A stretch of DNA of 64,000 bases from Candidatus Enterousia sp. (GCA_045586565.1 JAZNAO010000006.1:1457-65456), one strand, 5' to 3'; positions 4,872 to 30,868 are shown, counted from the stretch's first letter. The notes: a model not told the origin generated them from the letters alone. Made by a program: numbers and translations.

Positions 4872-5603
4872 ATGACACGATATAAAGTAATCTTGGAATA
4901 TGATGGCACAGGCCTGATTGGGTGGCAAGAAAACCGCCATGGGCCGTCTGTGCAATCAATTATGAAAGATGCCATTGAATGTTTTTGTGGTGCGCGCGTT
5001 GATGTTGTGGCGGCGGGACGCACAGATGCCGGTGTGCATGCGGTTGCGATGACGGCGCACTTTGACATTGATGGTGAACATGATGCCGAAACCGTTATGC
5101 GGGCATTAAATTTTTATTTGGTAAATAAACCTGTGGCGGTGTTGGATTGTGAAATTGTGCCTGATGAATTTCATGCGCGATTTGATTGTGTCGCGCGCCA
5201 TTATAAATATGTTGTTTTAAATCGTGGGCCGTCACCGGTACTGCAACAAAATCGTGTTTATTGGGTGCCAAAGAAATTAGATGTTGATGCAATGCGTGCA
5301 GCCGCAGAAAAATTAATCGGCAATCATGATTTTACCAGTTTTCGTGCATCTGAATGCCAGGCGAAATCCCCAATTAAAACATTGGACAGAATAGAAATAA
5401 CCCAAAACGGCGACGAAATTATTTTTGAATTTTCTGCGCGTTCGTTCTTGCATCATATGGTGCGTAATATTGTTGGTACACTGATTGAAATTGGTCATGG
5501 TAAACCATATGATATTGATGAAGTGTTGGCGGCAAAGAATCGTGCGGCGGCGGGCCCAACGGCGCCGGCGTCTGGATTATATTTTATGCGCGCAGAATAT
5601 TAA
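4872..5603 (+). CDS. truA: tRNA pseudouridine(38-40) synthase TruA.
   Basis: GAGRTDAGVHA catalytic Asp motif; expected length of 243 aa. Confidence 0.9.
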   Translation: MTRYKVILEYDGTGLIGWQENRHGPSVQSIMKDAIECFCGARVDVVAAGRTDAGVHAVAMTAHFDIDGEHDAETVMRALNFYLVNKPVAVLDCEIVPDEFHARFDCVARHYKYVVLNRGPSPVLQQNRVYWVPKKLDVDAMRAAAEKLIGNHDFTSFRASECQAKSPIKTLDRIEITQNGDEIIFEFSARSFLHHMVRNIVGTLIEIGHGKPYDIDEVLAAKNRAAAGPTAPASGLYFMRAEY

Positions 5604-7546
5604 TGCCATGGCCGATTGGCGGGTGTGTATTTTATACGACCATTTGGGTACATTATAAATCCACCACGCAATATTTTGTGTGCACATTTTTCTGAATCTA
5701 TATTCCAATAAGACACAATATAATCCACACTTTCATCATTGCATAATTTTTGCAGATTATTCATCAGTGGTACGAACTTTTGGATATAAACAATATTGTT
5801 ATATCTGTATACACCGTTGTCGTGTTTGCGACGTGGGTTTGGTGTGTCGATTGCTTCGTTATTTAATTTCTTCCACGTGTTAAACGCAAAGAAATGATTT
5901 GATGCACGTGATTTATTAAATTCCAGTTTCCCATTGTCATCGATAAATCCAACCAGTTCATTATCATGCGTTGTATAAAATATCGGCTTTGGTGTTGTCG
6001 AAACATAAATTGCCCCAGACATGCAAAACACAATACACAAGATAATATTTAATCTGATTTTGTATGGTGTGATTACAATCAAACTAATCAGTCCCAATAT
6101 AAAACACATTATTGCAGCATTTGAAATATGTGGTACGTCAATTACAGACATTGGCAATTGTGCAATCCAATTTGCAATCTGAAATGCCATGTCATAAATT
6201 TGGTGCGCCCAGTTTAATGGGAATAAAATCCCAAACACAGATAACAATGCGCCGATTATAACCAGTGGCATAATTGTCACTGAAAATATAGGCAATAAAA
6301 TTAAATTACCCAGTATGCTGTATGTCGGAATTGTACCAAAATGCATGGCAACAAATGGGGCGGTAAATATCCCGGCCCACACAGATGTTAAAACAGATGC
6401 ATATGTAATCTTTAATATTTTGTTATGTGGCATTTTCGGTTTAACGACGTCATACATCCATACCAATCCAAATACCGCGGCAAAAGATAATTGAAATCCA
6501 GCCTGCATTACATAGTGCGGATTTATCAAAAACATTAATATAAAGACCATTGCAATATTACGCATTGAAATTGCACTGCGTCCGAAAATAAATGCCATAA
6601 ATACCAGTGTTGTCATACAAAACGCGCGAAATGTCGCCGTGTCTGCCCCAGATAAACACATATAAAATAATAATCCCGCCCACGCGCATATTAACGCCGG
6701 GGATTTTGCCGGTATCCGTCGTGTGATGTATGGAATACTGCGGAATATGAAAAAGAACACAACAAATAACCATCCGCCCAGTAATGTCATATGAAATCCA
6801 CTGATTGACCAAATGTGTCCGACACCGGCAGATGTCCAAATTACATCATCCTTTTCTGGAACCATGTTTTTATATCCCAACACCAAACTGTCGACCAAGA
6901 AAGATTCTGATTTGTGGTGAATAAATTCGCGCAGATTTACACTGTTTGCATGATTGATAATTTTCAAATCTGTGACATAACCCGTCGCAGTCAGGTTATT
7001 AAAATATGCATGTCGTGCCCAATCAAATGTTTCTGGCGCAGGCGCCGGTGACATACCGAACAGTCCAACCGTTGCAGATATATTGTCACCGACATTTGGC
7101 ACAATAATATCATCGCCAATTTTAACACGCACGCGTGCCATCCCATTGCCTGCGCGAATATCTGATGCACGTACCGATAAATACAAACGTTTGCCGTCTG
7201 GGGTATAGTCAATTGATTCAACAATCGCATTTATATTATGGTCGTGTAAATCATATTTTAGTTTTGGTGTGTCGACTAAATGTGTATATATGAACGCATA
7301 ACAAAAACCAAAACAGAGCAGGGCAATCCCGCGAATAATATTTGGAATTTTATTCCAGAATATAATTGTAATTAACCCCAGTGTAATTATCGGCAATCCA
7401 ATGATGTATGGTTCGGCCGGCATAGTAAAATATAACGCGGCGCCAAACGCCATTAAAAATGGCACGAACCAAAACAAGTTTTCAGATTGATATTTCCACC
7501 AATTTTTCATATCCAAATTATAGGAATTTATTCTGTTGCCCTGCAA
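5600..7546 (-). CDS. comEC: Competence channel protein ComEC/Rec2 family.
   Basis: 648-aa polytopic membrane protein with DUF4131-like N-terminus and the ComEC competence domain. No C-terminal metallo-beta-lactamase domain is apparent. Confidence 0.7.
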   Translation of the reverse strand: MQGNRINSYNLDMKNWWKYQSENLFWFVPFLMAFGAALYFTMPAEPYIIGLPIITLGLITIIFWNKIPNIIRGIALLCFGFCYAFIYTHLVDTPKLKYDLHDHNINAIVESIDYTPDGKRLYLSVRASDIRAGNGMARVRVKIGDDIIVPNVGDNISATVGLFGMSPAPAPETFDWARHAYFNNLTATGYVTDLKIINHANSVNLREFIHHKSESFLVDSLVLGYKNMVPEKDDVIWTSAGVGHIWSISGFHMTLLGGWLFVVFFFIFRSIPYITRRIPAKSPALICAWAGLLFYMCLSGADTATFRAFCMTTLVFMAFIFGRSAISMRNIAMVFILMFLINPHYVMQAGFQLSFAAVFGLVWMYDVVKPKMPHNKILKITYASVLTSVWAGIFTAPFVAMHFGTIPTYSILGNLILLPIFSVTIMPLVIIGALLSVFGILFPLNWAHQIYDMAFQIANWIAQLPMSVIDVPHISNAAIMCFILGLISLIVITPYKIRLNIILCIVFCMSGAIYVSTTPKPIFYTTHDNELVGFIDDNGKLEFNKSRASNHFFAFNTWKKLNNEAIDTPNPRRKHDNGVYRYNNIVYIQKFVPLMNNLQKLCNDESVDYIVSYWNIDSEKCAHKILRGGFIMYPNGRIKYTPANRPWH

Positions 7547-7588
7547 TGATATTTTTTGTATGATAGAATTCCATAAGGAGGCTCTCTT

Positions 7589-9160
7589 ATGGCAAGATAT
7601 ATATTTATTACTGGTGGGGTTGTATCAAGTTTAGGCAAGGGCGTCGCAGCGGCAGGTTGCGGCGCCCTTCTTCAATCGCGTGGATATACGGTGCATGCGC
7701 GAAAATTTGACCCGTATTTGAATATTGATCCTGGGACAATGTCACCATTTCAGCACGGTGAAGTTTACGTGACAAATGACGGTTATGAAACAGATTTAGA
7801 TTTAGGATATTATGAACGTTTCTTGGGTGCAAAATTATCCAGAAACGATTCTGTATCTGGGGGGCGAATATATTGGGATGTATTAAATGCCGAACGTCGT
7901 GGGGACTATCTGGGTGGTACAGTGCAAATGATTCCGCACGTTTCAAATAAAATAAAAGAATACATTGCTGCACCAACTGATACAGATTTTGTGGTGTGCG
8001 AAATTGGTGGCACCGTAGGCGATATCGAAGGTAAGATTTTCTTAGAATCAATACGTCAATTCGCAAATGATGTTGGTCGCAAAAATGTTATGTTTGTTCA
8101 TTTAACATTGGCGCCATATTTGGAAAAATCAGGTGAATTAAAAACCAAGCCAACCCAGATGTCTGTTCGACAATTACTGGAAAACGGAATCCAGGCAGAT
8201 ATGCTGATTGTGCGAACGCCACGAATGTTGACGGCCGATGAGCGCGATAAAATCGGAATGTTTTGTAATCTGCCATCCAAAAGTGTCATCAGTGGAATTG
8301 ACGTTGATAATATCTATAAAATACCATTGGCATACGAATCCCAACACGTCTTTGACATTATTGCCAATCATTTTGATTTACCACATGCGCGGGGTGACAT
8401 GACGCGATTTGAACGTATTGAACGATATCTGGATGCAGATTTGCCGACGGTCAACATTGGTATTGTGGGCAAATACTTTAATGTCCCAGACGCGTATAAA
8501 TCATTAAACGAGGCCTTGTTTCATTCTGGTATACAAAATAATGTGCACATAAATTTATGTAAACTGGATGCGGAAAAATTCACCCCAGACGATTGTCGCA
8601 ACATGCATGGAATATTAGTTCCCGGGGGATTTGGTGTTCGTGGCACAGATGGTAAAATTGCCGCTGCAAAATACGCACGTGAAAACAAAATTCCATATAT
8701 GGGGATATGTCTGGGGATGCAGGTTGCAGTTATTGAATTTGCGCGCAATGTATTGGGTATTGATAATGCAAATTCGTCAGAATTTAGTTCTGATTGCACC
8801 CCGGTGATTGGGATTATGTCAGAACACAATGCAGAAAATATGGGTGGCACATTGCGATTGGGCGCATACCCATGCAATATAACACCAAACACATTGGCGC
8901 ACCAGATATATAATACAACACAAATATCCGAACGGCATCGCCACAGATACGAAATGGACATATCTTTAGAGAAACGCTTTGCCGATGCTGGTATGATAAT
9001 ATCTGGGCGCAGTCCCGATGGAACATTGCCGGAAATGATTGAGCTTTGCAATCATCCCTTCTTTATTGCGGGTCAATTTCACCCAGAATTTCAATCGTCG
9101 CCATACACGGGCCATCCGATGTTTAATGCATTTGTATCTGCGGCAAAAAAACAAATATAA
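7589..9160 (+). CDS. pyrG: CTP synthase.
   Basis: N-terminal synthetase domain (GGVVSSLGKG) and class I glutamine amidotransferase motif GICLGMQ. Confidence 0.95.
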   Translation: MARYIFITGGVVSSLGKGVAAAGCGALLQSRGYTVHARKFDPYLNIDPGTMSPFQHGEVYVTNDGYETDLDLGYYERFLGAKLSRNDSVSGGRIYWDVLNAERRGDYLGGTVQMIPHVSNKIKEYIAAPTDTDFVVCEIGGTVGDIEGKIFLESIRQFANDVGRKNVMFVHLTLAPYLEKSGELKTKPTQMSVRQLLENGIQADMLIVRTPRMLTADERDKIGMFCNLPSKSVISGIDVDNIYKIPLAYESQHVFDIIANHFDLPHARGDMTRFERIERYLDADLPTVNIGIVGKYFNVPDAYKSLNEALFHSGIQNNVHINLCKLDAEKFTPDDCRNMHGILVPGGFGVRGTDGKIAAAKYARENKIPYMGICLGMQVAVIEFARNVLGIDNANSSEFSSDCTPVIGIMSEHNAENMGGTLRLGAYPCNITPNTLAHQIYNTTQISERHRHRYEMDISLEKRFADAGMIISGRSPDGTLPEMIELCNHPFFIAGQFHPEFQSSPYTGHPMFNAFVSAAKKQI

Positions 9161-9184
9161 AATCCCCCGTCTGGGGGATTTTCT
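9161..9184. terminator. Bidirectional intrinsic terminator between convergent pyrG and skp-like.
   Basis: Hairpin ATCCCCCGTCTGGGGGAT followed by a T tract. Confidence 0.7.
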
Positions 9185-9849
9185 TAGAAACCTTGTGGTT
9201 TGTCCATTTTGACCTTGGATACTTTTTTATCCAATGCCTGGATTACTTCGTTTGTAATGTCCAGATTTTCTGTGTTTGCACCTGTGCGCGCCATACGACC
9301 GTCGATTACCAATGACAGTTGTTTTTTATCAATGATACCTTCGATAACCGGGTCCAGATGTTTTACCTGAATATCATTCAATGCCTTTTGGAAAGACATT
9401 TCAACACTCTGTGCACGTTCGGTCAATTCGCGTTGCAGATTTGTCACTTTGTTTTGATAGTCAACAACGCGACGTTGTAATGCTTCACGTGACAGAACGT
9501 CTTGTGATTTTTCGATTTCTTCCTTTTCTTCTTCCAGTTCTTTCTGCTTTTTTGTCAATTCATCACGCAGTTTACTTTCATATGATTCTTTCTGTGCGCG
9601 TAAATCAGCCAACGCCACAGCATCATTTTGAATTGCGTCCATACGTATAACCGCGATACGCAGGTTTGCCGCGCTTGCGGCATCTGTGGTTACGACTTCC
9701 ATTGCATCGGCAACAGATGCGCCCGTATCAGAATTTAATGCCGATACCCCCCATACACCCAATGCCGCGACTGCGATAACAACCGCCGCCACAATGCCAG
9801 TTTTTTTATAGTTTTTTACAACCTGATTTTCATTTGATTTTTTTACCAT
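9184..9849 (-). CDS. OmpH/Skp-like periplasmic chaperone.
   Basis: N-terminal membrane or signal segment, long E/K-rich coiled-coil, and a C-terminus (DITNEVIQALDKK) resembling Skp. Confidence 0.6.
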   Translation of the reverse strand: MVKKSNENQVVKNYKKTGIVAAVVIAVAALGVWGVSALNSDTGASVADAMEVVTTDAASAANLRIAVIRMDAIQNDAVALADLRAQKESYESKLRDELTKKQKELEEEKEEIEKSQDVLSREALQRRVVDYQNKVTNLQRELTERAQSVEMSFQKALNDIQVKHLDPVIEGIIDKKQLSLVIDGRMARTGANTENLDITNEVIQALDKKVSKVKMDKPQGF

Positions 9850-9916
9850 TTTTCCGTCCTTTATGTTTTGTTATACGTATACTATAACAACAAAAAAATA
9901 AAATGAAAAGGGAAAG

Positions 9917-10600
9917 TTATCTGGCGGGACTAAGCCTGATTTCAACCCGTCGATTGGTCAAACGACCGATGTCATCTTGTGCGGCGATGGGGCGTGCCGC
10001 GCCACGACCAACGATAAACATACGTGCCGTACTGATATCGTGTTGTGCCATATATACGCCAACGCGTTTCGCCATATCAATCGATAGCGCATATGCCGCA
10101 TTTGTGTCACGCATTGCATCTGTATATCCTGCGATTTCAATAAAAGTTGCGTCATATTGTTTTAATATTTTTGTAATAATTTTCAATGTATCATCACCTG
10201 TTGATGAAATATCGGCAATATCTAATTCCATAATCGCATCCCGTACCAGTATAACAACCACATCCGTTCCGGCACGTTGCACAGAAATCCCCGGCTTGCG
10301 CAGGGCGTCATACAATGCGTATTCCAGGCTTTTCATATATTGTGTTGCAATGATATTGTCGTTTGTTGTTTTGTCACCATATGATAATGTGTCGTCTGCA
10401 TCAACTGCGTCACCCACCAATTTGCCGCCTGCGCCCAGATATACAGGTCGCTTTGCGACGCGTGACATTTCGGTCATATCCGTCCAACTGGCGCCATTTA
10501 AATATTGTGACCATGTTTGTCTGTCTGGGCTGGTATACGGCATACACCCATTTAGTATGCTAAATAAAGATAATATAAAAATAAATTTTAATTTATTCAT
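9917..10600 (-). CDS. OmpA-family (Pal-like) peptidoglycan-associated lipoprotein.
   Basis: Lipobox ...ILNGC. C-terminal OmpA_C-like domain (GYTDAMRDTNAAYALSIDMAKRV ... NRRVEIRL). Its start codon directly abuts the stop of the upstream pilin gene. Confidence 0.7.
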   Translation of the reverse strand: MNKLKFIFILSLFSILNGCMPYTSPDRQTWSQYLNGASWTDMTEMSRVAKRPVYLGAGGKLVGDAVDADDTLSYGDKTTNDNIIATQYMKSLEYALYDALRKPGISVQRAGTDVVVILVRDAIMELDIADISSTGDDTLKIITKILKQYDATFIEIAGYTDAMRDTNAAYALSIDMAKRVGVYMAQHDISTARMFIVGRGAARPIAAQDDIGRLTNRRVEIRLSPAR

Positions 10601-11059
10601 TTATTCAACAATAAACGATATTTGGTTTGTATCAGATTCAAAACAGTTTTCTGCATATCCTGTTTCAAAGCCGTTTACCAGCATTTTTGTTGCCCACTGT
10701 GGTTTCATGGTTGAAAAATAATCACATTCACCTGTTGTTAAATCAACCAAGTTGATGGAAAATGTCGCGCCATCTGTACTGGATGTTATGGACCATCCTT
10801 CGCCACCAATTGGGGCGCGATCTGATTGTAATGCGCCCGCCTTGATAAGATAGTCCACAGACACACCTGTATAATCATCGCGCATTTCCAATAACAATTT
10901 TGTGTTTGCTGCGATTTGTTCCAATTCTGCATTTGCGATTGTTCGCTTTTGATTTTCGCGCATTATGCGAAACATTCCAAATGCCGCCACTGTCATCAGA
11001 CCAGTAATCGCCATAACACCGATAACTTCAATCAAAGACCGTCCAGATTGTTGTTTCAT
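10601..11059 (-). CDS. Type IV prepilin-like protein (pilin or pseudopilin).
   Basis: Class III leader MKQQSG|RSLIEVIGVMAITGLMTVAAF with Glu at +5. The start ATG overlaps the dnaX stop in a TAATG junction. Confidence 0.75.
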   Translation of the reverse strand: MKQQSGRSLIEVIGVMAITGLMTVAAFGMFRIMRENQKRTIANAELEQIAANTKLLLEMRDDYTGVSVDYLIKAGALQSDRAPIGGEGWSITSSTDGATFSINLVDLTTGECDYFSTMKPQWATKMLVNGFETGYAENCFESDTNQISFIVE

Positions 11060-12627
11060 TATTTTACTCCTACGATTTCTGCGTTTTCAAACAGGCTCAT
11101 TGCGCTGGCGACCAATGGGTCTGCAACCAATTCTTCTTGTTTTTGTTCAGACATTGTATGTGTATGAACATTTTCACTGGCGCGAACCATCTCCCATGCA
11201 TGTCCTGTCTTGTCCATCAGCCATGTGGCCAATTTATGCACAAAATCCCCGTCACCTTTGCGGTCAAAGTATGTGATTTTACCATCGGTAAATTCAGACA
11301 CTTCGATATTACTGCTATAATAAGAATATAATAAAATTTCCTTGGATTTTTGTAATTCTTCCCCCAGTTGTGTTGCAGACGTAATTGTTACAAATGTTGT
11401 TTGTGGTATACACGGTTGTGTTTCTGACGGTTTAGACATACGGTCTGCCAAAATATTTTTTACGTCACGCACACGATTTGCAGATTCTTGCTGTTTAATC
11501 AATTCTGGGATTGATGGCATATCTGCAATATGCATCATACGAATAATCAGCATATCAAAACATTGTTTTTGATTGCCCGCAGCCTGCATTTCTGGGACGG
11601 CGGCAACCATAACCTGCCATATACGCGACAATGTGTTCACAGATACGCGTGAATTTATCATATGAATCTGGTCGCGTTGGTCGGTGGTGTATGGTGAATT
11701 TACAGCATCGCCTGCGTGTAATGCCGGATGCATACGCGTTGCCCAGTGTGTCCATTCCATCATGTCCGTCAACAACATCATTAAATCGGCGCCGTTATTA
11801 TAAATCTCGTCTACCTTGTTTAATGCGGCTGCTGTGTCACCAGATAACAAAGTCTTCATCAAATCAACCACAACACCACGGTCGGCACGTTTAAGCATAT
11901 CTAATACAGCTACTTCATCAACGTGTCCCCCGGTTTGGGCAATTGCCTGGTCCAGCAAAGATAAACCATCGCGCACAGAACCATCTGCCGCGCGTGCCAA
12001 TAATTCGTTTGCGCCATCAGTCAGTTCAACATTTTCCTGGTCTGCAATCCATGCAAAATGTTTTTTTAATGTTTCGACCGGCACACGCACCAAATCAAAA
12101 CGTTGGCAACGAGATAAAATCGTCACGGGAACTTTTCGGATTTCTGTGGTTGCCAAAATGAATATTACATGTGCGGGTGGTTCTTCTAATGTTTTCAACA
12201 GTGCGTTAAACGCAGATGTCGACAGCATATGAACTTCGTCAATAATATAAACTTTATATCGTCCGTTTGTTGGTCTGTATTGTGCCGCATCCAGAATGTC
12301 ACGCATATTATCCACACCTGTATGTGATGCAGCGTCGATTTCCATAACGTCAATATGTTGTCCGGCGGCAATTGCGCGACAGTTTTCGCATGTTCCACAT
12401 GGTGTTGCGGTTGCCCGGTCTGATGATTGGCAATTCAATGCCTTGGCCAAGATACGCGCTGTGCTTGTTTTTCCAGTTCCGCGAATTCCTGTGAAAATAT
12501 ATGCGTGCGCAATACGTGACGTGTTGATTGCAGTGGTCAATGTTTTTACCAAAACATCCTGGCCAATCAGTGTTTTAAAATCTTGACTGCGATATTTACG
12601 TGCCAAAACGGTATAATTGTTTTCCAT
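11059..12627 (-). CDS. dnaX: DNA polymerase III subunit gamma/tau.
   Basis: AAA+ Walker A GIRGTGKTS, zinc-binding Cys cluster CQSSDRATATPCGTCENC, clamp-loader box. Confidence 0.95.
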   Translation of the reverse strand: MENNYTVLARKYRSQDFKTLIGQDVLVKTLTTAINTSRIAHAYIFTGIRGTGKTSTARILAKALNCQSSDRATATPCGTCENCRAIAAGQHIDVMEIDAASHTGVDNMRDILDAAQYRPTNGRYKVYIIDEVHMLSTSAFNALLKTLEEPPAHVIFILATTEIRKVPVTILSRCQRFDLVRVPVETLKKHFAWIADQENVELTDGANELLARAADGSVRDGLSLLDQAIAQTGGHVDEVAVLDMLKRADRGVVVDLMKTLLSGDTAAALNKVDEIYNNGADLMMLLTDMMEWTHWATRMHPALHAGDAVNSPYTTDQRDQIHMINSRVSVNTLSRIWQVMVAAVPEMQAAGNQKQCFDMLIIRMMHIADMPSIPELIKQQESANRVRDVKNILADRMSKPSETQPCIPQTTFVTITSATQLGEELQKSKEILLYSYYSSNIEVSEFTDGKITYFDRKGDGDFVHKLATWLMDKTGHAWEMVRASENVHTHTMSEQKQEELVADPLVASAMSLFENAEIVGVK

Positions 12628-12709
12628 ACTGAAACTTCCTTTGGGTTTAGCATAGCAAACCAGTGTAAAATTTCAACAAATAAAACGCGCCAATGGCGCG
12701 CTTATAATA

Positions 12710-13018
12710 TTATTTTAGGTTTGTAATAAAATCTGGCAATTCGCTGTCTTCATCATCAGGATTTTCTGGTGCGTCTCCGGCGGATTCTGGTGCTGGTTCT
12801 GCAACTGTCTTATCCTTTGGGTCGCGTGTTGAATCTATTTTACCCTGTTCTGCATTGACAATACGACCATAGTGTTCTGCCGCCTGTAATAAACGTTCGC
12901 GTTCAATTTCATCAGATGTTTGACGCGCTTGGTCTATATATTGTTTTCTTTTCTGACGCCATTTATGACAGCGTTGAATCATCTGTCCGACATTGGATTG
13001 ATTTTTTTTATTTTGCAT
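12710..13018 (-). CDS. Hypothetical small acidic protein (102 aa).
   Basis: ORF only; no recognisable motif. Confidence 0.3.
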   Translation of the reverse strand: MQNKKNQSNVGQMIQRCHKWRQKRKQYIDQARQTSDEIERERLLQAAEHYGRIVNAEQGKIDSTRDPKDKTVAEPAPESAGDAPENPDDEDSELPDFITNLK

Positions 13019-13121
13019 ATTTTTTTCTTTTTAATCAGGAAATAATCTTTTATAACGAATCCGAATAAACATCGTCTTCGTCACAGTTAACGTTTCAAAT
13101 ATTAAAGTATCTTAAAACCGA

Positions 13122-13150
13122 TTGCAATAATTTTTTTATGTTGCTACACT
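13122..13150 (+). promoter_or_regulatory. Candidate sigma70 promoter for the pilin-like cluster.
   Basis: TTGCAA, 17-nt spacer, TACACT. The downstream AGGAGGGGG ribosome-binding site lies 6 nt before the TTG start at 13174. Confidence 0.45.
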
Positions 13151-13173
13151 GAACGTGTAGGAGGGGGCACGTC

Positions 13174-14532
13174 TTGCAACAACAACGCGGTAATTTTTTA
13201 ATGCAGGCTCTGTTGGCATTGGGGGTAATTTTTGCATTTATGCCATTTATTACACGCCAATTGGCGGGGCGCGATACCGATGCGCGTATGTATTCTTCAA
13301 CGCGCCAGGTTGATATTGCGCAAAGTGCCGCCCAGATTTTTATTCGTGAAAATGCGAATAATTTACCATATGAAACAACGGTTATATCGGGAAATGATTT
13401 TGCTGATTTATTGGAACCGTATGGCCTGCCATTGGGTTTTGTGCCACGCACGGCCCTGGGCCAGAATATTGCGTTGGTAATCAATAAAACGCCAGTATCT
13501 GTATCTGCGTATCTGGAATTGTCTGGTGGTAATTTATCCGCGTTGGATATTGCAGAGTTGGCGCGTCGTATTGGATTTTATGCGATGGTCACAGATGATG
13601 GTGTAAATGTTGGTATTGAATTGTCGGATGTTTATTCTGATATTGTGCGTCGTAATGAACCGAATTTGGAAAACAGTGGTTTTTTAACCGATTTAGATAT
13701 GGGTGGTTTCGTATTTAATAATGCCGGCAATTTATTCGCTGTGCGTGGCACATTTGATAGTGCTCAATTTAACAGTATGACTGTAAATGGACTGGAATCG
13801 GGGCGCAAGGCAAAAAATACAATTGGCACCATGATTGCAGACAAGGCTGTGTTTCAAAACAAGTCTGGCGAATCAGCGCTAACTTTGACACGTGGGACAT
13901 TGTATGCAAATACTGTAAATGGTCGCACGTTATCTTTGTTTGGTGATACGGGAAATCTGGCTGTGAATGATGCGTCGGCATATGAGTTGGCGATGACTGC
14001 GGGTCGAACGTCTTTTTCGGGGCCTGAAAAATGGAATGTTCGCGGGAATTTGGTATCAGATCACATCAATTTTAGTGTTGAACGATTAGATGTGTCGTCG
14101 TATATCAGTGCAACACGCGGTCAAGATGTATTTATTGATTATGATACATTGGATTACAGCACTAAATCTGGAATCGAAGTCGGAACAATATACACATCAA
14201 ATATCACTGTGCGTGATCAGACGTCCAGTGCATTAAACGATGGTATGTCTGGGGCGGTTATTTTAGATGTGCGCCCAGGCGGCACAACACTGTTGCCGGA
14301 TGCGTTGGTTGGTGATATCAACAACGACGAATTTGCAATTATATCTGATGTGTTATCAGATGACGATGCAACGATTGCGTGTAAAAAAATAATAGATGAT
14401 TTCGAAGGTGTGTATAACAAGCAGTCTTTATCGCAATATTTAATATGTCAATATGTATATTGGCAACGTCTGGAAAAGCGCATCAATATCAAACAATGTT
14501 TAATGGCGGGTGGCAGTGACTGTGTTAAATAA
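13174..14532 (+). CDS. Large prepilin-leader protein 1 (452 aa). Gln at +5 instead of Glu, as in GspK/PilX.
   Basis: TTG start gives MQQQRG|NFLMQALLALGVIFAF. Choosing the downstream ATG would remove the prepilin leader. Confidence 0.55.
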   Translation: MQQQRGNFLMQALLALGVIFAFMPFITRQLAGRDTDARMYSSTRQVDIAQSAAQIFIRENANNLPYETTVISGNDFADLLEPYGLPLGFVPRTALGQNIALVINKTPVSVSAYLELSGGNLSALDIAELARRIGFYAMVTDDGVNVGIELSDVYSDIVRRNEPNLENSGFLTDLDMGGFVFNNAGNLFAVRGTFDSAQFNSMTVNGLESGRKAKNTIGTMIADKAVFQNKSGESALTLTRGTLYANTVNGRTLSLFGDTGNLAVNDASAYELAMTAGRTSFSGPEKWNVRGNLVSDHINFSVERLDVSSYISATRGQDVFIDYDTLDYSTKSGIEVGTIYTSNITVRDQTSSALNDGMSGAVILDVRPGGTTLLPDALVGDINNDEFAIISDVLSDDDATIACKKIIDDFEGVYNKQSLSQYLICQYVYWQRLEKRINIKQCLMAGGSDCVK

Positions 14533-15751
14533 CAAGATATTTTCAGATAATTGTCATGGTGCCAGTGTTCTGGAAGTGTTGCTGGCAATGGCGATTGTTG
14601 CCATGGCGACACCTTTTGTATATCGGCAAATTGCCCAAACAAATCATACGATTCATGATATTGCAATTGCGCGCAAGATTATGTCGACGCGTGAATCCGC
14701 ACTAAACTTTATCAGAATAAATCAAGATAAATGGCCTGATAATGCCCAGATTAAATTAGATGATTCTGAATTGGATATTATATCAACAGATGCAGCAGCG
14801 GGCTTTATTGATAAATATTCTGTAAACGGCGCAGTTATAACAGATGTATATTTGGCATTTGTTACAGCAGATACAGGATTGCGGACAAATCAAATTGCCC
14901 GTCATATTGGTTCTGATGCGGCGGTGGTCAGCGATGATGGTGTTGCGTATGGTAATACTTGGGCGGTTGCAGCGCCTGATTTTATTCCTGGTGATTTAAT
15001 ATATCGTATATCGCGTGACATTGCGGGCACAGATACATCAATATATCTGCATCGTGGAACATCTGGTGATGATGGTTTAAATATTATGCAACGTGATTTA
15101 GATATGTCGAATCATCACGTTTATAATGTTGCGACTTTGAATGGAAAATCTGTTCGTGCACGAAATGCAAATACTGTGTTTGTCGACACAACAGATGTTG
15201 TTACCAACAGTGTATATTTTTCATCGGGTGCGAATTTAGAGAATGATTCATCTGTATTTGGTAATGTTCGTGTAACTGGTGATATATCTGGGTTTCGTAA
15301 TATTTATGCAGATAATTTAAACGGTCGTGGATATACGACCACAGGGCGCATTGTAACAGACCGCGCCACGATTATAGATACTATAAATGTTGCGAATGAC
15401 TTTGTGTTAAAATCTGATTCTACACGCACGGTCAGCGCATTTACAGGTATTTCGGCCAGTTCTGTTTTGACACCATACATATCTGCCGAAGAGATGATAT
15501 TTTATGATAATTTTGGATTGACTGTATCTGGTGAATTGCTGATGTCAACCTCAACACCATTAAAGTTGGGCAGTTGGTCATTCCCATCAACAAAGCCGCC
15601 TGTGTTTAAGTCTTTTAATGTGTCACGGGCAACACGTCCGTCAATGCCGTCGCGTAATGAATTTGATGCAGTAACCCGTCGTGGGTGGCAGTCAACAGAT
15701 ACACTAACCCCACCGGTCTTTCAACAAACATATATATCAACGATAAATTAA
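14510..15751 (+). CDS. Large prepilin-leader protein 2 (413 aa).
   Basis: GTG start; leader ...DNCHG|ASVLEVLLAMAIVAMA with Glu at +5. Overlaps the upstream gene by 23 nt. Confidence 0.55.
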   Translation: MAVTVLNNKIFSDNCHGASVLEVLLAMAIVAMATPFVYRQIAQTNHTIHDIAIARKIMSTRESALNFIRINQDKWPDNAQIKLDDSELDIISTDAAAGFIDKYSVNGAVITDVYLAFVTADTGLRTNQIARHIGSDAAVVSDDGVAYGNTWAVAAPDFIPGDLIYRISRDIAGTDTSIYLHRGTSGDDGLNIMQRDLDMSNHHVYNVATLNGKSVRARNANTVFVDTTDVVTNSVYFSSGANLENDSSVFGNVRVTGDISGFRNIYADNLNGRGYTTTGRIVTDRATIIDTINVANDFVLKSDSTRTVSAFTGISASSVLTPYISAEEMIFYDNFGLTVSGELLMSTSTPLKLGSWSFPSTKPPVFKSFNVSRATRPSMPSRNEFDAVTRRGWQSTDTLTPPVFQQTYISTIN

Positions 15752-15752
15752 A

Positions 15753-17069
15753 ATGACAAAACGATACGGAATTTTTTCAAAATACAATCAATCGCGTGGC
15801 GGCATGTTGATTGAATTACTGCTTAGTGTGGCATTGGCATCTGTGATAATACCATTCATTTTCCAGTATCAACAGAACGCGGTAACGCGTGCGCAAAATA
15901 TTGCGATTACAGAACAAATGTCGGATATTCAATCTGCATTGGAAAGATATATAATTGCCAATCGCGAAGATTTATTAAAAACTGTGGGTCGCACTATTAC
16001 GCGCATATCTATGTCTGATTTGGTGCCATATGGTGTCCCAGATTCTGTATTGACCGCCGGCGATGAATTGTTTCAACTGCGCATCTTAAAATCGTCAGAT
16101 TATGGTGACCAGTCTACATTACAGGGAATCGTTGTGCGAAACTCAGAAGATATATCCCCATTGCGAACACGTGAAATTGTGAATCTGTCTGGGGGCAGTA
16201 TGGGTTTTATTGATGACACTCATGCGTATGGTACATTTGGTACATGGCATACAGATACAGTTGACATGGGCATTGATATGGATAACGCGATTATTGAAAC
16301 GACACCTGTGAATCGTGACAACGCGTTGTATTTGTGGCGCATACCATCTGATGATGCGTCAGACTCGCGCATGATGACGGCGTTAAACCTGGGTGGGCAT
16401 GATATATTAAATTCATCGTTTGTAAATGCGAATCATATTGAATTTTCAGAAATGTTGTCTGCACCTGCGATTGCGACGGGCGATATTATCTTTCAAAACA
16501 GAACAACGATAGATTGGCCATTGGATGCATCCAACGCCAGTGTCGCGGGTATGTTATCTTCGGATGCCAAGAATATGGAAATAACCAATTCTTTGACGAT
16601 TGGTGACGTTGCAAAATTATCATCGTTGACGGCATCAAATTTATGGGTTGGCAATTTAACGTTGGGTGGTTTATCTTTGCACGGTGATGTAGAAGTCGCG
16701 ACCTTGGCCATAAATCAGACACTGGATATGACTGCCGGTCGTATCGAAGCAATGTTTGTATCTGTTGGTTTTGCAGGTTCTATGACGCCGCGTCTGGTTG
16801 TTTACGACAGAATCGAAGATTCAACGAATTCTGGATACTATTGGGATTTGAAATCAGAAATGGCAAGCTTTGCGGACGCAACGTTGGTTGAATTAAATCG
16901 TATGGCAACCTTGGCGTCATATTACGAAGGTGATGCGTCGACTGAATCTGGCCAGATTTTTGGTGCGGTATCTGCGAATAAAAATGCGACTGTATCTGAT
17001 TACATGAACGCGATAAATGAAATTCAAACGCGTGTTCGTGCCAAATATCGTCAGTTGAATTTGCAATAA
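15753..17069 (+). CDS. Large prepilin-leader protein 3 (438 aa).
   Basis: MTKRYGIFSKYNQSRGG|MLIELLLSVALASVII (Glu near +5). Starts 2 nt after the upstream stop. Confidence 0.6.
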   Translation: MTKRYGIFSKYNQSRGGMLIELLLSVALASVIIPFIFQYQQNAVTRAQNIAITEQMSDIQSALERYIIANREDLLKTVGRTITRISMSDLVPYGVPDSVLTAGDELFQLRILKSSDYGDQSTLQGIVVRNSEDISPLRTREIVNLSGGSMGFIDDTHAYGTFGTWHTDTVDMGIDMDNAIIETTPVNRDNALYLWRIPSDDASDSRMMTALNLGGHDILNSSFVNANHIEFSEMLSAPAIATGDIIFQNRTTIDWPLDASNASVAGMLSSDAKNMEITNSLTIGDVAKLSSLTASNLWVGNLTLGGLSLHGDVEVATLAINQTLDMTAGRIEAMFVSVGFAGSMTPRLVVYDRIEDSTNSGYYWDLKSEMASFADATLVELNRMATLASYYEGDASTESGQIFGAVSANKNATVSDYMNAINEIQTRVRAKYRQLNLQ

Positions 17070-17089
17070 AATGTGGTATAAGTAATAAC

Positions 17090-17617
17090 ATGAAAATAAA
17101 ATGTGAATTTTGTAAAACAGAATATAATATAGACAGACCGCCATTGACGCCGGTTAAATGTGCGTTGTGTGGGTATACGTGGCGCGTTGCGGCACCGGCG
17201 CGCAAGAACGTATGGTTGATGTTTTTTGCGTCTGTCTGTGCATTATTGTCTGCGATAATTTTTTCTATTGCGGTTATTGCTCATCACCAGGCTATTCATG
17301 CGAACCGTGGTCCATTGATTGCATCTGTGTCTGGGGTTGAAACCGCGACTGATGATACTGGTGTTTCGCATGTAATTGTCAGTGGTTCTGTGACAAATGT
17401 ATCGGATGCGATATATGGTGTGCCTGACTTGATAATTGTTGCGACGGACGATAATGGGAATGTTTTATCGCGCCAGAAATTTATGCCATCGGCCACATTA
17501 CTTGATTCTGGGGCGGTTGTGAATTTTAAACACACACTGGCGCCATTGCCGTCTGGCGTGACTAAGATATCCGCACATTTGGGCGAAATGGAAATACCAT
17601 CGGGGGAAGAACAATGA
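17090..17617 (+). CDS. Zinc-ribbon plus transmembrane protein (DUF3426-like).
   Basis: N-terminal CEFCKTEYN...CALCGYTW zinc ribbon, a transmembrane segment, then a periplasmic domain. Confidence 0.5.
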   Translation: MKIKCEFCKTEYNIDRPPLTPVKCALCGYTWRVAAPARKNVWLMFFASVCALLSAIIFSIAVIAHHQAIHANRGPLIASVSGVETATDDTGVSHVIVSGSVTNVSDAIYGVPDLIIVATDDNGNVLSRQKFMPSATLLDSGAVVNFKHTLAPLPSGVTKISAHLGEMEIPSGEEQ

Positions 17618-18072
17618 AAAAATTTATATTTGCATTGATTGGTTTGGCTTTATCTGCACCGTCATTTGCGGCAGACACGCCTGCGCCCGCGCGCATCAGT
17701 ATTTTTTCCACCAGCACTGATTGGCAGGCAGTTACTGGTCTGCGTCTGAACGAATATAATGGCACGTTTATTCCAGACAAGAAATTGGTTGGTCGTGGTC
17801 TGGTTTTGTATTACCTGGATGGGTTTCCGTGTTATGGGTTGGGGTATGGTGTTCGCGCGTGGGTTGGCCCAGACTTTAATCATGAACATTTGCATATTGC
17901 GTGTGTTGCGGCACCCACAGAAATTAAGTTTGCATACCGCAACGCCACCCGTGATGCAGACCAGGCGACAACCACAGGAATTTTGACATGTCCGGTTGAA
18001 GGCGACGGTCGTGAATTGACAATCCGTTTGTCTGATTGTACGGTTGGCCCTGATTGGGATGAATACAGATAA
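17614..18072 (+). CDS. Hypothetical secreted protein.
   Basis: Signal peptide MKKFIFALIGLALSAPSFAA. ATGA overlap with the upstream gene. Confidence 0.45.
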   Translation: MKKFIFALIGLALSAPSFAADTPAPARISIFSTSTDWQAVTGLRLNEYNGTFIPDKKLVGRGLVLYYLDGFPCYGLGYGVRAWVGPDFNHEHLHIACVAAPTEIKFAYRNATRDADQATTTGILTCPVEGDGRELTIRLSDCTVGPDWDEYR

Positions 18073-18083
18073 GGGTTTTATGC

Positions 18084-19043
18084 ATGGCGGACACACGTAC
18101 ATTTACTGTCTTAGATACTGATGAACTGACACGCGTTGATAAATATTTATCATCACAAATGCCTGAATTTTCACGCAGCGAGATTCAGCGTTTCACTGTC
18201 ACGCGTGGTGATGGTGCGCCTGTAAAGTTTTCCGAAAAAGTTCGTGTTGGGGATTGTTTTACTGTTGAAATTCCAGCGCCCCAGACAGACGTTGCAACAG
18301 ATAACATATCGTCAGACTTTGATCTGGACATATTGTTCGAAGACGATGATATAATCGTTATAAACAAACCGCGTGGTGTGGTTATGTACCCGTCTGCGGG
18401 CAACAAGACCGGAACATTGGTTCAAAATATCTTGGCGCACACGCATTTATCTGCGCTGGGCGGGGCAACGCGCCCGGGTGTGGTTCATCGTCTGGATAAA
18501 GATACCAGTGGCGTGATGGTCTTTGCGAAATCAGACGCGGCATTTCGTGGCTTGGTAAAAATATTTTCCGCGCATGATTTGACACGTAAATACATTGCCT
18601 TTACATGGAACATCCCAAATTGGGAGGTTGCCGACATCACCGGCAATATCGCGCGTTCATCACGTAATCGCCAAAAGATGACAATGGTAAAATCGGGCGG
18701 AAAATCATCTCATACCGAAGTGGCGGTTGTAAACGCGTGGCCACGTGCGAACGTGTCGCAAATGCGTTGCACACTGTTTACCGGCCGAACACACCAGATA
18801 CGCGTTCACCTGTCATCGCATGGTTTCCCGGTGTTATGTGACCCGTTGTACGGTCGTGGCGCGTCACGTCTGGGGACGGTGCGCGATGCGGATTTGTTGG
18901 ATTTTCTGCGTTCTCATGACGGTCAAATGTTGCACGCCGAAGTGCTGGAATTTACTCATCCCATAACTGGCGCGGCGATGCGTTTTAAATCCCGCCTGCC
19001 TGATGATATGATGGAATTAAAATATATCCTGGAAAATATATAA
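18084..19043 (+). CDS. rluD: RluA-family 23S rRNA pseudouridine synthase (RluD-like).
   Basis: S4-like N-terminus and the catalytic motif HRLDKDTSGVMV. Confidence 0.8.
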   Translation: MADTRTFTVLDTDELTRVDKYLSSQMPEFSRSEIQRFTVTRGDGAPVKFSEKVRVGDCFTVEIPAPQTDVATDNISSDFDLDILFEDDDIIVINKPRGVVMYPSAGNKTGTLVQNILAHTHLSALGGATRPGVVHRLDKDTSGVMVFAKSDAAFRGLVKIFSAHDLTRKYIAFTWNIPNWEVADITGNIARSSRNRQKMTMVKSGGKSSHTEVAVVNAWPRANVSQMRCTLFTGRTHQIRVHLSSHGFPVLCDPLYGRGASRLGTVRDADLLDFLRSHDGQMLHAEVLEFTHPITGAAMRFKSRLPDDMMELKYILENI

Positions 19044-19117
19044 CATTTTCCCCATTTTTCCCTTTTCAAAGTGCTTTGTTTGTGTTAAAATAAAGTAACT
19101 AATAATGGAGTAAGGGG

Positions 19118-22100
19118 ATGTCATTTCTCAAAAATACAGTAAGTTTATTGGCGGTTTTCTGCGTTGTTCCGGCGGCTTTTGGTGCCACGGCGCGCCCCAG
19201 TGTTTTAAACACTGCGACGGCGGTTTCGGCAACTGGTGCGGTTCGTCGTGTGGCGATGCCAACGATGACATCGTATATCACTGGCTCGGCGGGTGGTGTT
19301 ACAAACAACAATAATGGCAACTCTGGTTCCAGCAACTTATTAGACAGCATTGAATGCATCGATGCATACACCGAATGTATCAAATCCGAAGATGTGTGCG
19401 GCGAAGATTTGTCAGAATGCACAACAAACGTATTGTTCCATGGCAAAATGCCCCAGTGTGTAAGCACCCTGGCCCAATGTGAACCGGATGGGGTTGATGC
19501 ATTATTTGGCACAAAGAATGTAACCGATTTGTCGTTCTATGATTCAAATAATTCTGCGGAATATGATGCCGAAGATGGTGAGGTTATTCGTTACACATAC
19601 CCAACAGACGGCAGTGTTCTGGGGCAAATGATTATATCTGCGGCGATTGAAAATCAGTATGATACACAAACATGCGTGAAACGTTATATGTCATGCTTGA
19701 ATAAAGACAGTGTTTGTGGTGCAGACTTTGAATTATGTACCGACGAACGTGAATTTAAAAAGCAGGCATTGTTCTGTGATTCAACCCTGGCCCGTTGCCA
19801 GGCAGACGGTGTTCGCGAATTATTCGGGGTTTCAAAATGGTCGCCACATAAAATGGGTGCGGATGGCAAAATCGAAGGTTCTTCCCGTGTTGGTGTGGCA
19901 ATCAAAGACGGTGCAGATTTGGCGGCGTTGAACGCGGTTTCTACCTGTTACAAGGTTGTTGAACAGTGTTTCTTGGGCGCATGTTCGGCCAATCCGTTGC
20001 GTTGTTTGGCGGGGTCGAATTTATCGACATTGACGGCGGCAAATGATATTGCGGCGGACGGTATCACAATCACATTGTCAAATGACAGTGCGCCATCAAC
20101 CCCAACAGACGTAAATCGTTATCTGCGCACATCGTGCCAGGATACAATTGGTGCAAATAAATTCTGTCACATGACATTCTTGGGCAAAAATCCAAGTAAG
20201 AAAGACTTGGCGGATGTAGATGTCCAATCAGAAGTCTTTGACGATGCAATCAGCGAACGTAAAAAATACGTTGAATCAAAAATCCAAGATTTGATGACAC
20301 AGTTCGATAAACGTGCCAAGGATAAATGTGTTGAAACAATTCGTTCATGCGCAATGCGTTCCTGTGGCGAAGGTGTCGGTTCTGTATGTTATTCATCTGT
20401 ATATGGCGCGAATGGCGGAAATACAATTGCGGGTCCGGCCACACGTCCAGATATCAAAACGGCATGTGAATCTGTTGTAAATACCGATGTGAATTGCCAA
20501 TATGCATATTCAACTGTTATAGATAATGGTGTGTATTCATACAATTACATCCAAAATTCTGTATTTGATACATTATTCCCAGAATATGCTGCCGACAAAA
20601 CAAACAATGATCCAATCGGTGTAATCGGGTCGTTAAATTCGTCCCTGTCGACCAGTTATAATGCCGCTGCTCTGGCGCAAATGAAGAAGCAATGTCAATC
20701 TGTCGCGACCAGCTGTGTTAAATCAATGTGTGGCACGGATTACCAGAATTGCTATCGCAATCGAACAGATATCTTGTCTGATTTGACCAATACGGATAAT
20801 GCAAAGTTTGATACGTCAATGAACAAGGTTGGTGGTGTTCTGGATTATACAATTGTATTGGGATTGTGCATGAACACGGTTAAAAACGCCGATGTATGTG
20901 ATGAACACCTGAAAATCCAAAAGGCCAAATTAGATTTGGAAAAGACAACGGAAAATGTATGGGGAACACAATCGTCTGTCCGTGATGGCTGGATTGATGC
21001 TGGTGGTGCCAAGAAGTTTGAAGAAGGGATGGTTCATTCCAAAGACGAAAATGGTGCCGATTTATGCACAAATGCTGCAGGGGACCAAGGTGTTTGCTAT
21101 GACGTTGATGCCAATGGTGATGTTTTTAATAAACCTGTGATGATATCTGCAGACCTGTATAAAACGAACCAGGCCACAACATCATTATTCCGTGAATTGT
21201 TGGTTGATTTAGAATACGAAGCCCAGGCGAAGTATAACGCCAAATTGACGAAACAACAGAATATGTGTCTGGCGGCAAATTCTGGTGGTGTTGTTGGCGC
21301 TGGCGATATGGGTTCAACATTCATGTGGGCAAAATTGAAAAGGGGCAAGGTTCCGGCCGATTATTCAATGAATGGTTTAACCAGTGACCAAATTGTCCCA
21401 AGTAATGAATTGTATGGTTCATTCTGCCGTGTGCGTGTGACACTGCAATCCACAGACCCAACCGTATCTGAATGGTTAAACAGTACCGAAGGTCAGAAAT
21501 ATGCAACGCGTTATTTTGCGGCGGGTGATGCATTTACATGCGGTTCATGGATACCTGTTGGCGATGAAGGAACATGCCATGACGATACCGCCGCGGGCAT
21601 CAGAAGATGCAAAGGTGGCTCAGGATTACGTGGCCTGGCGCAAAAGGTTGGCGAAGCCACATATACATACGACAAACAGAAATCCGACACAATTCTGCAA
21701 ACAATGTTGCCAGTGGTTGGATTGCTGGGTGGTGGTATTGGTGGTGCATATCTGGGCGCCGGCATCGAAGACGGTTCTGTATTCGGCGGTCTGACGGGTA
21801 AAAAGAGCACAAAATCAGACAGCAAGACAGCAAAGACTGCAAACGATAGATGTTCGAATGCCATCGATATGGCCAAAACAAAATTAGCGGAAGCAAATCC
21901 TAGCCTGGAAAGTGTAAGAAGTTTAGCCAAAACAGCGGCTGATGAATTAGAAGACATGGACAAGGTTGTGTACAAAAACCTGGAGTATTGGCCAGATGGT
22001 ATGACAACTACTGTTACTGAAACTATTTCTAAAGGAGAAGGGGAGCAAACTAAATATTATTGTGGCGGGACAGAAGTCAATACGAAAGTACCAGCACGGT

Positions 22101-22432
22101 GCGTTGGTGATAAGTTATTGGCCGATGCAAGAACAGAAATCACACCCATTTTGAATAGACTAGAAGGTTATTGTGAATCTGCGGTCGAAGACGAAGATGC
22201 CAATGCTAAAAAGAAAAAGGGTGCCGCCGCCGCGGGGGCTGTGACAACCGGTGTGATCAGCAGTGTTCTGACATGGGGCGTCACACGCAGCATCATTGAT
22301 GCACAACGCACCAAAGAACAACAGGCCGCAATTGATGAATTCATGGATTCATTGGGTTCAAAAATCAATTGTGTTGTCGGTGGGGATTCCATTGCGGTAT
22401 ATGGCGACACATTGGTCACCAGTATGGAATAA
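19118..22432 (+). CDS. Giant secreted Cys-rich repeat protein (1104 aa) with a C-terminal Gly-rich hydrophobic anchor.
   Basis: Signal peptide. Tandem ~50-aa Cys modules (C-x6-C-x6-CG-x4-EC ... C-x5-C-E/Q-xDGV-x-LFG, seen twice near the N-terminus). Further C-x6-C-x3-CG modules. C-terminal GGGIGGAYLGAGIEDG and AAAAGAVTTGVISSVLTWGV segments. Confidence 0.65.
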   Translation: MSFLKNTVSLLAVFCVVPAAFGATARPSVLNTATAVSATGAVRRVAMPTMTSYITGSAGGVTNNNNGNSGSSNLLDSIECIDAYTECIKSEDVCGEDLSECTTNVLFHGKMPQCVSTLAQCEPDGVDALFGTKNVTDLSFYDSNNSAEYDAEDGEVIRYTYPTDGSVLGQMIISAAIENQYDTQTCVKRYMSCLNKDSVCGADFELCTDEREFKKQALFCDSTLARCQADGVRELFGVSKWSPHKMGADGKIEGSSRVGVAIKDGADLAALNAVSTCYKVVEQCFLGACSANPLRCLAGSNLSTLTAANDIAADGITITLSNDSAPSTPTDVNRYLRTSCQDTIGANKFCHMTFLGKNPSKKDLADVDVQSEVFDDAISERKKYVESKIQDLMTQFDKRAKDKCVETIRSCAMRSCGEGVGSVCYSSVYGANGGNTIAGPATRPDIKTACESVVNTDVNCQYAYSTVIDNGVYSYNYIQNSVFDTLFPEYAADKTNNDPIGVIGSLNSSLSTSYNAAALAQMKKQCQSVATSCVKSMCGTDYQNCYRNRTDILSDLTNTDNAKFDTSMNKVGGVLDYTIVLGLCMNTVKNADVCDEHLKIQKAKLDLEKTTENVWGTQSSVRDGWIDAGGAKKFEEGMVHSKDENGADLCTNAAGDQGVCYDVDANGDVFNKPVMISADLYKTNQATTSLFRELLVDLEYEAQAKYNAKLTKQQNMCLAANSGGVVGAGDMGSTFMWAKLKRGKVPADYSMNGLTSDQIVPSNELYGSFCRVRVTLQSTDPTVSEWLNSTEGQKYATRYFAAGDAFTCGSWIPVGDEGTCHDDTAAGIRRCKGGSGLRGLAQKVGEATYTYDKQKSDTILQTMLPVVGLLGGGIGGAYLGAGIEDGSVFGGLTGKKSTKSDSKTAKTANDRCSNAIDMAKTKLAEANPSLESVRSLAKTAADELEDMDKVVYKNLEYWPDGMTTTVTETISKGEGEQTKYYCGGTEVNTKVPARCVGDKLLADARTEITPILNRLEGYCESAVEDEDANAKKKKGAAAAGAVTTGVISSVLTWGVTRSIIDAQRTKEQQAAIDEFMDSLGSKINCVVGGDSIAVYGDTLVTSME

Positions 22433-25595: not shown

Positions 25596-25620
25596 ACGGC
25601 ATGACGCCGTTTTTTTATTT
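25596..25620. terminator. Bidirectional terminator between uvrD and the convergent membrane-protein operon.
   Basis: AACGGCATGACGCCGTT followed by a T tract. Confidence 0.6.
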
Positions 25621-30801: not shown

Positions 30802-30868
30802 TCTCTCTTTTTATTTTTATCTTTTCAATTATATCACATTTAATGCAAAATATGGTATACTTAAAAAC

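Follow-up and report, generated by a model that had tools for sequence, protein, structure and literature searches.

A stretch of 64 kb (64,000 nt) from Candidatus Enterousia sp. (GCA_045586565.1 JAZNAO010000006.1:1457-65456), referred to here as the window, carries four genes with type IV prepilin-like N-termini: one encoding a small pilin and three large tandem genes, here named A, B, and C (coordinates in Table 1). We consider it likely that the products of this set are the filament subunits of a type IVb-like pilus, chromosomally encoded and akin to the PilS-PilV pilus of R64/IncI, and the most likely arrangement is a dispersed chromosomal type IVb pilus in which three fixed PilV paralogs stand in place of a shufflon. 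The host is a Candidatus Enterousia-like alphaproteobacterium of the order Rs-D84, and the PilV-type type IVb system was previously unreported in this lineage; the published account of Enterousia reports type IV pili for a different lineage only (PMC12306168). Enterousia belongs to the GTDB order Rs-D84, has genomes of 0.75-1.0 Mb that are without a tricarboxylic acid cycle, respiration, amino acid and nucleotide synthesis, and standard transporters, and has been proposed to live as an obligate symbiont or parasite (PMC12306168). The relatives of the host have genomes of ~0.9 Mb.

Conserved prepilin N-termini and non-ATG starts

Searching one genome from each GTDB species gave 80 loci, belonging to Candidatus Enterousia or Alphaproteobacteria metagenome-assembled genomes from animal and human guts. 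In total, 83 syntenic loci were compared, from which 75 orthologs of the small pilin, 78 of A, 80 of B, and 83 of C were taken. All four open reading frames were found where a preliminary description of the window had placed them, on the same strands, and its assignment of their N-termini to the type IV pilin class was borne out. Members of this class carry a short basic leader with Gly as its last residue, Glu or more rarely another residue at +5, and then some 20 hydrophobic residues that make up the N-terminal half of a long alpha-1 helix. The Gly preceding the predicted cleavage site (Gly-1) is conserved at 100% in all four families (75-83 species). At position +5, all A orthologs (78/78) have Gln, and Glu is found in 72/75 small pilins and in every B (80/80) and C (83/83) ortholog. 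Because Gly-1 is invariant and +5 is fixed across 75-83 species, these prepilin motifs are not a matter of chance and are under strong selection. A six-frame scan of the window for the pattern G-x4-[EQ] followed by 16 uncharged residues returned the four genes and a single false match, located inside a multi-pass membrane protein.

Gene A starts with TTG, 7 nt after the ribosome-binding site GGAGGGGG, and gene B could start from a GTG at either 14510 or 14516, both of which keep the leader. The second of these is at the position of the start called in a relative (L001), and the first in-frame ATG of B falls within the hydrophobic helix. Upstream of Gly-1, TTG or GTG is the only choice of start for 58 of 78 A and 52 of 80 B orthologs; therefore, the non-ATG starts are a conserved feature and, as had been claimed for the window, real. 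The 23-nt overlap described between A and B also stands (17 nt if B starts at 14516), while the 2-nt gap described between B and C is in fact 1 nt. Gene calls in relatives vary in their treatment of the leader: an NCBI call (L002, 7471-8802) starts an A ortholog from an internal ATG, giving a 443-aa protein that has lost the prepilin leader, and an ENA call (L001, 7447-8802) gives a 451-aa A ortholog with the leader kept. Such leader-cutting calls may help hide these genes from annotation, and leader-less calls may partly explain why the proteins are annotated merely as hypothetical. Mean identity to the window was 59-63% for the pilin set, compared with 80% for dnaX and 75% for RluD, so the pilin set is less conserved than its neighbors, as expected of surface proteins.

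Homology of A, B, and C to the PilV tip adhesin

Pairwise BLASTP among A, B, and C gave 24-31% identity over 85-234 aligned residues, and hhalign comparison of the ortholog families linked A with C (probability 97.6%, E=4.5e-12, 372 columns), B with C (99.5%, E=4.8e-23), and A with B (E=1.4e-5). By these alignments, the three are paralogs of one another. All three families were also aligned with the PilV family, C at a probability of 99.75% (E=2.7e-27), B at 99.1% (E=1.7e-18, 320 columns), and A at 93.8% (E=1.8e-7). The PilV alignment spans the leader, the alpha-1 helix, and a constant head of ~230 residues, and it ends at the shared motif YLxR...M...L(N/D)(L/M)xxxDIxN.

Only 214 relatives were recovered when 1.84 billion representative proteins were searched with a profile built from C orthologs, and 10 of the 72 distant C relatives that were scanned are genuine Shufflon_N proteins (best E=3.8e-74). 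One protein (P0347), matched by the C profile at E=7.5e-9, has a Shufflon_N match of E=7.8e-34 and is 30-33% identical to genes on 2,717 plasmids that are annotated as [quoted passage not shown]. C orthologs themselves score 26.9-27.0 bits on PF04917 (Shufflon_N), against a gathering cut-off of 27.5. At the level of profiles, then, A, B, and C are distantly homologous to PilV, the type IVb tip adhesin. Members of the PilV family are roughly 430-470 aa long, and the annotated Serratia PilV has 461 aa; therefore, at 413-452 aa, A, B, and C are ordinary in size. The earlier proposal that they represent novel giant minor pilins is not supported, since they are distantly related to a tip adhesin already known and of comparable length.

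In the thin pili of IncI plasmids, PilV is a minor pilin that serves as the adhesin (PMC9045228). With PilV of the IncI1/IncI2 thin pili (R64, TP114; PF04917), the proteins described here share the Gly-1/Glu+5 leader, a homologous N-terminal region of ~230 residues, and, in relatives, the partners PilO2, PilP, a GspE-family ATPase, and a GspF-family platform. They are unlike PilV in the following respects: (i) there are three fixed tandem paralogs rather than one gene with shufflon-switched C-termini, only weak, chance-level repeats being found in a search for shufflon inverted repeats across positions 9000-19200, with no Pfam recombinase domain among the scanned open reading frames of the window; (ii) the genes are chromosomal, lie among housekeeping genes, and are apart from the assembly genes; (iii) on the reference, the PilV gene is at the end of the pilL-pilV operon after the prepilin peptidase gene, whereas A-B-C form a separate operon; (iv) the C-terminal regions of A, B, and C are unrelated to the variable segments of PilV; and (v) one paralog, A, has Gln at +5, and the proteins of the window do not reach the Pfam cut-off.

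AlphaFold prediction on a shallow alignment of close C orthologs was unusable (mean pLDDT, the predicted local distance difference test score, of 34.7), whereas a diverse alignment gave a usable model with a mean pLDDT of 71.9. In this model, a helix at residues 13-69 (57 residues) is followed by an alpha/beta head extending to ~residue 190 (pLDDT 75-87), a beta-rich region at 224-340, and finally C-terminal helices. As modeled, the C-terminal ~200-aa module of C resembles the beta-solenoids of adhesins; structures of this kind include bactofilin, autotransporter passengers, and two-partner secretion domains. A and B probably carry a solenoid as well, as their alignment to C runs past the head domain. 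In A orthologs, four Cys in the C-terminal region are invariant. Modular pilins and pilus-associated beta-solenoid adhesins, such as PilB of S. sanguinis and the tapirins of Caldicellulosiruptor, can be counted among the closest systems. Most PDB matches of the family profiles were to type IV pilins (geopilin, TcpA, and PilA); they covered the leader and the alpha-1 helix and had weak E-values. CofB and TcpB were not retrieved for these proteins by either sequence or fold.

The small pilin is the presumed major subunit and an analogue of PilS. Its family has two invariant Cys, C112 and C139, which is consistent with a D-region disulfide. Searched against the PDB, the family profile gave geopilin at E=0.0036 and TcpA at E=0.03 (residues 8-119), and the Pfam model PilS_N matched the small pilin at E=0.0047, below the cut-off.

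Assembly genes in relatives and the gene neighborhood

In the window, an assembly ATPase, a platform, a secretin, and a prepilin peptidase were all undetected when every open reading frame of at least 150 aa was scanned against Pfam. Likewise, tblastn with a reference pil operon returned nothing from the window, and its intergenic gaps held no hydrophobic candidate for a small prepilin peptidase, all in agreement with the earlier statement that no ATPase, platform, secretin, or PilD is present in the 64 kb. The label "orphan" attached to the pilin set therefore holds within the window and fails beyond it, where relatives carry PilO2-PilP-ATPase-platform genes on the same contig as the pilin genes or near them.

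In three species (L022, L036, and L038), genes for PilO2-like and PilP-like proteins and the ATPase were found within 10 kb of the pilin genes, with the operon directly adjoining them. In L087, where the full layout was read, everything is contiguous: C-B-A, divergent from DUF4167-dnaX-pilin-OmpA-Skp-PilO2-PilP-ATPase-platform. On the 316-kb contig JAZQCH010000001.1, about 130-150 kb separates the pilin genes (L008) from the assembly operon (L086), which reads 138aa-329aa-PilO2-PilP-ATPase-platform. The PilO2-PilP-ATPase-platform series, found in the relatives L086, L087, and L089, follows the order of a reference IncI-type operon. The ATPase matched GspE at 2.6e-63 and PilB at 2.9e-55, the platform matched GspF at 5e-21, and PilO2 (PF06864, E=4.5e-6) and PilP (TIGR03021, E=5e-8) were recognized with scores at or just under the cut-offs. 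Among the 120 clusters listed, ATPase identity was 88-100%.

In the common arrangement (L085/L086/L089, ~6440-7970), PilO2 is always preceded by two genes, one for a lipoprotein of 138 aa and one for a protein of 311-329 aa; both are absent before PilO2 in L087, and neither has similarity to PilM, PilN, or secretins. The protein upstream of PilO2 (321-329 aa) was considered as a secretin candidate, and it showed no PilN similarity and no relative in the PDB.

Around the pilin genes, the order skp-OmpA-pilin-dnaX-DUF4167 on the minus strand and A-B-C-zinc-ribbon-152-aa protein-RluD on the plus strand is kept in about 75 loci (Table 1), with A-B-C in their own operon, divergent from DUF4167-dnaX-pilin. 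The start of the small pilin overlaps the stop of dnaX by 1 nt (11059), and its stop at 10601 abuts the OmpA start at 10600. Strong terminator-like hairpins are seen only before dnaX (12703-12683) and after skp (9182-9159). Because the pilin is wedged between dnaX and OmpA with hairpins only outside, it may be co-transcribed with a replication gene, which would be odd for an abundant structural protein. Promoter and terminator scans performed no better than on shuffled sequence.

The zinc-ribbon gene and then the 152-aa gene follow C in 82/83 related loci, and their products may be accessories in one functional unit with A, B, and C; the reading frames overlap or nearly abut. The zinc-ribbon protein matched Zn_ribbon_4 (Pfam, E=2.8e-5) and FxLYD_dom (NCBIfam, E=2.5e-4), both below the cut-offs, and the 152-aa protein had no family match in Pfam or NCBIfam. 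On the other side, the pilin-OmpA pair is kept in 75 related loci, and the OmpA-domain lipoprotein could be either an envelope anchor of the pilus or a housekeeping Pal-like protein.

Table 1. Positions of the pilin genes and adjoining genes in the window, counted from its first nucleotide; a slash in a leader precedes residue +1.
Feature	Position	Strand	Description
OmpA-domain lipoprotein	9917..10600	-	Peptidoglycan-binding; Pfam OmpA E=3.8e-11
Small type IV pilin	10601..11059	-	152 aa; 6-aa leader MKQQSG/RSLIEV
PilV-like paralog A	13174..14532	+	452 aa; TTG start; 6-aa leader MQQQRG/NFLMQ
PilV-like paralog B	14510..15751	+	413 aa (GTG 14510) or 411 aa (GTG 14516); leader about 15-17 aa, ...DNCHG/ASVLEV
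PilV-like paralog C	15753..17069	+	438 aa; ATG start; 16-aa leader ...NQSRG/GMLIEL
Zinc-ribbon membrane protein	17090..17617	+	One transmembrane segment; FxLYD/DUF3426-like domain; directly 3' of C
152-aa protein	17614..18072	+	Signal-peptide-like N-terminus; start overlaps zinc-ribbon gene by 4 nt

Elsewhere in the window, positions 25615-32159 hold five tandem multi-pass membrane proteins that are apparent paralogs, four on the minus strand (431, 481, 396, and 420 aa) and one on the plus strand (about 432-486 aa). Their layout recalls the duplicated VirB6 genes of the type IV secretion systems of Rickettsiales; they had no Pfam match even at E<=1 and no TrbL/VirB6 signal. Cys-rich proteins with signal-peptide-like N-termini are encoded at 19118-22432, 34317-35102, 53535-55040, and 55291-56376, and may be further surface or interaction proteins. 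The 1104-aa Cys-rich protein also follows RluD in 63 related loci, and one of the others has an Ephrin_rec_like match (E=1.5e-11).

The proposed pilus and its alternatives

In the pilus proposed here, prepilin peptidase would cut each of the four proteins after the invariant Gly, the 152-aa small pilin would polymerize, and a PilO2-PilP-ATPase-platform machine, presumably encoded in the host genome outside the window, would assemble the filament. A, B, and C, as three fixed and diverged PilV paralogs each made of a prepilin leader, an alpha-1 helix, a PilV head, and a putative beta-solenoid, would prime assembly, end up at the tip, and display their solenoids to bind a partner cell or surface. 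Within this tip, A, with its Gln at +5, would take the uppermost position and serve as the cap, much as GspK does in type II secretion. GspK and the type IVa proteins PilX and PilK are tip-capping minor (pseudo)pilins without Glu5. As the preliminary description had noted, A resembles them in its non-acidic +5 residue, which is found in every ortholog, and it is likewise larger than the polymerizing subunit. A non-acidic +5 fits the top-most subunit because no salt bridge is needed to a subunit above. Unlike GspK, A is a PilV paralog and not a GspK homolog (A, B, and C gave no match to the GspK/T2SSK families), and we infer its cap position from the likeness.

The closest counterparts of such a tip in other type IVb pili are CofB (colonization factor antigen III of enterotoxigenic Escherichia coli), TcpB (toxin-coregulated pilus of V. 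cholerae), and LngB, which are large bimodular minor pilins with a pilin domain and beta-rich C-terminal domains. CofB and TcpB each form a homotrimer from one gene product; in contrast, three different paralogs would need to form a heterotrimer here, and, by analogy, A, B, and C possibly make up a heterotrimeric tip. The role of these minor pilins in tip location, initiation, and binding is the one proposed for A, B, and C, and for CofB and TcpB, both the tip location and the initiation of assembly have been reported (PMC6048534, PMC5207764). The tip-complex role suggested for the large pilins in the preliminary description is, in this light, a reasonable inference.

Several observations weigh against this reading. 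First, the curated prepilin models (Pfam N_methyl PF07963 and TIGR02532) did not match A, B, or C at E<=1, N_methyl matched the small pilin at E=0.0015 and 18.5 bits, below the cut-off of 21.2 bits, and the A, B, and C proteins of the window itself had no Shufflon_N match in Pfam at E<=1. Such models had been put forward as a check on the pilin assignment, and their failure on A, B, and C is, in our judgment, outweighed by the PilV profile homology and the invariant Gly-1. Second, type IVb major pilins have a leader of about 13-30 aa and a mature domain of about 180-200 aa, whereas the small pilin, with its 6-aa leader and 146 mature residues, is type IVa-like in size; its similarity to the annotated type IVb major pilin of a Serratia plasmid was undetectable, and its +1 residue is Arg in 55/75 orthologs, which is unusual. 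Third, the C model is of medium confidence only (pTM, the predicted template modeling score, of 0.40), a Foldseek search of it against the PDB returned nothing significant, and a PDB sequence search indicated that PilV is without a solved structure. Because of these last two results, it is sequence homology and predicted secondary structure that support a pilin fold for the head domain. Fourth, the assembly genes are known from relatives only, the window being 64 kb of the host genome. Finally, neither an A24 prepilin peptidase nor a secretin was found in the window, in the 83 syntenic loci, or beside the assembly operon. The peptidase searches comprised tblastn with a Serratia prepilin peptidase, a scan for the motif GxGD[..][KR] in the window and all loci, the unannotated gaps, and the translated open reading frames of no family flanking the assembly operon.

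An extended form of the proposal takes up this last point, and we regard it as tentative and rather unlikely. It has Enterousia/Rs-D84 bacteria, as gut organisms obligately dependent on partners, make a pared-down type IVb filament, with an ordered A/B/C heterotrimer at the tip and A as the cap, working with scattered VirB/D4 genes and ComEC to attach to and exploit partners. Because a secretin and an A24 enzyme went undetected near the loci, the filament in this form might use a non-canonical outer-membrane exit or peptidase. If true, a hard-wired tip of three adhesins would replace the one-at-a-time variation provided by a shufflon.

Competence is a similarly doubtful explanation, in which the filament would capture DNA for ComEC and ComF as a nucleotide supply, with the large pilins acting in DNA binding or in priming assembly and not as adhesins; this would be compatible with a type IVb ancestry. 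Both comEC (5600-7546; TIGR00360, 80 bits against a cut-off of 36.5) and comF (48727-49449; TIGR00201, E=6e-29) are present in the window, as had been stated, Rs-D84 genomes are without nucleotide biosynthesis (PMC12306168), and type IV filaments are the usual organelle of DNA uptake (PMC6370729). The suggested link between these genes and the pilins has no specific support, however: comEC and comF are 5 kb and 32 kb from the pilins in unrelated transcription units and are absent from the 83 syntenic loci, the pilins match no ComG or ComP family (best match ComGE, E=0.12), and comEA was not seen in the window. In addition, the C-terminal module of C, as modeled, is like adhesin beta-solenoids and not like known DNA-binding pilin modules. 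DNA uptake is nevertheless possible as an additional function of the pilus.

We give a little less credence still to a contact pilus that would hold a partner cell while a type IV secretion system transfers DNA or effectors, as the IncI PilV thin pilus does. PilV-type pili are known chiefly from conjugative elements, and 2,430 of the 2,717 matching plasmids are predicted to be conjugative (PMC9045228, PMC5297154). Moreover, VirD4 (PF02534, TrwB) adjoins OmpA-pilin-dnaX in the relatives L001/L002 (1910-4159), and VirB4 (CagE_TrbE_VirB; L089, 1-1873) is about 8 kb upstream of a PilO2-PilP-ATPase-platform operon. These genes of the relatives are of the VirB/D4 type, whereas the Dot/Icm-type genes that accompany PilV on the reference IncI-type plasmid were not seen; the distance between the secretion and pilus genes is loose and variable, and the five tandem membrane paralogs of the window match no VirB6/TrbL model. 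Finally, the pilin genes are among housekeeping genes in about 75 species and, therefore, do not belong to a recently integrated element.

A pseudopilus like that of type II secretion, in which A, B, and C would form a GspI-J-K-like tip that pushes substrates and no extracellular filament is made, appears very unlikely. Although GspE and GspF are the best NCBIfam matches of the ATPase and platform, A is without Glu5 like GspK, and weak matches were obtained between B and GspI (E=0.0075) and between the small pilin and GspH (E=0.07), every Gsp match was far under its equivalog cut-off. PilO2, PilP, and PilV are type IVb-specific components, GspC, D, L, and M were not seen, and a 200-aa beta-solenoid, modeled in C and probable in A and B, would be without a pseudopilin counterpart. 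Least probable of all is that A, B, and C are pilin-descended surface or periplasmic proteins held unprocessed by an N-terminal signal anchor: the A24 peptidase and secretin went undetected in the sequences examined and the curated prepilin models miss all three, but the invariance of Gly-1 and the fixed +5 in ~80 species are hard to explain without cleavage and filament packing, and genomes of ~0.9 Mb have retained PilO2, PilP, the platform, and a highly conserved ATPase, with the assembly operon directly adjoining the pilin genes in three species (full layout in L087).

A dispersed type IVb pilus with three PilV paralogs would extend the PilV family, so far described mostly on conjugative plasmids and islands, to a chromosomal system passed on vertically, in which diversity comes from three fixed paralogs and not from DNA inversion. 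For the relatives of the host, a partner-dependent lifestyle is predicted, and the pilin set together with the assembly operon provides a testable candidate for partner attachment in uncultured, metabolically dependent gut bacteria.

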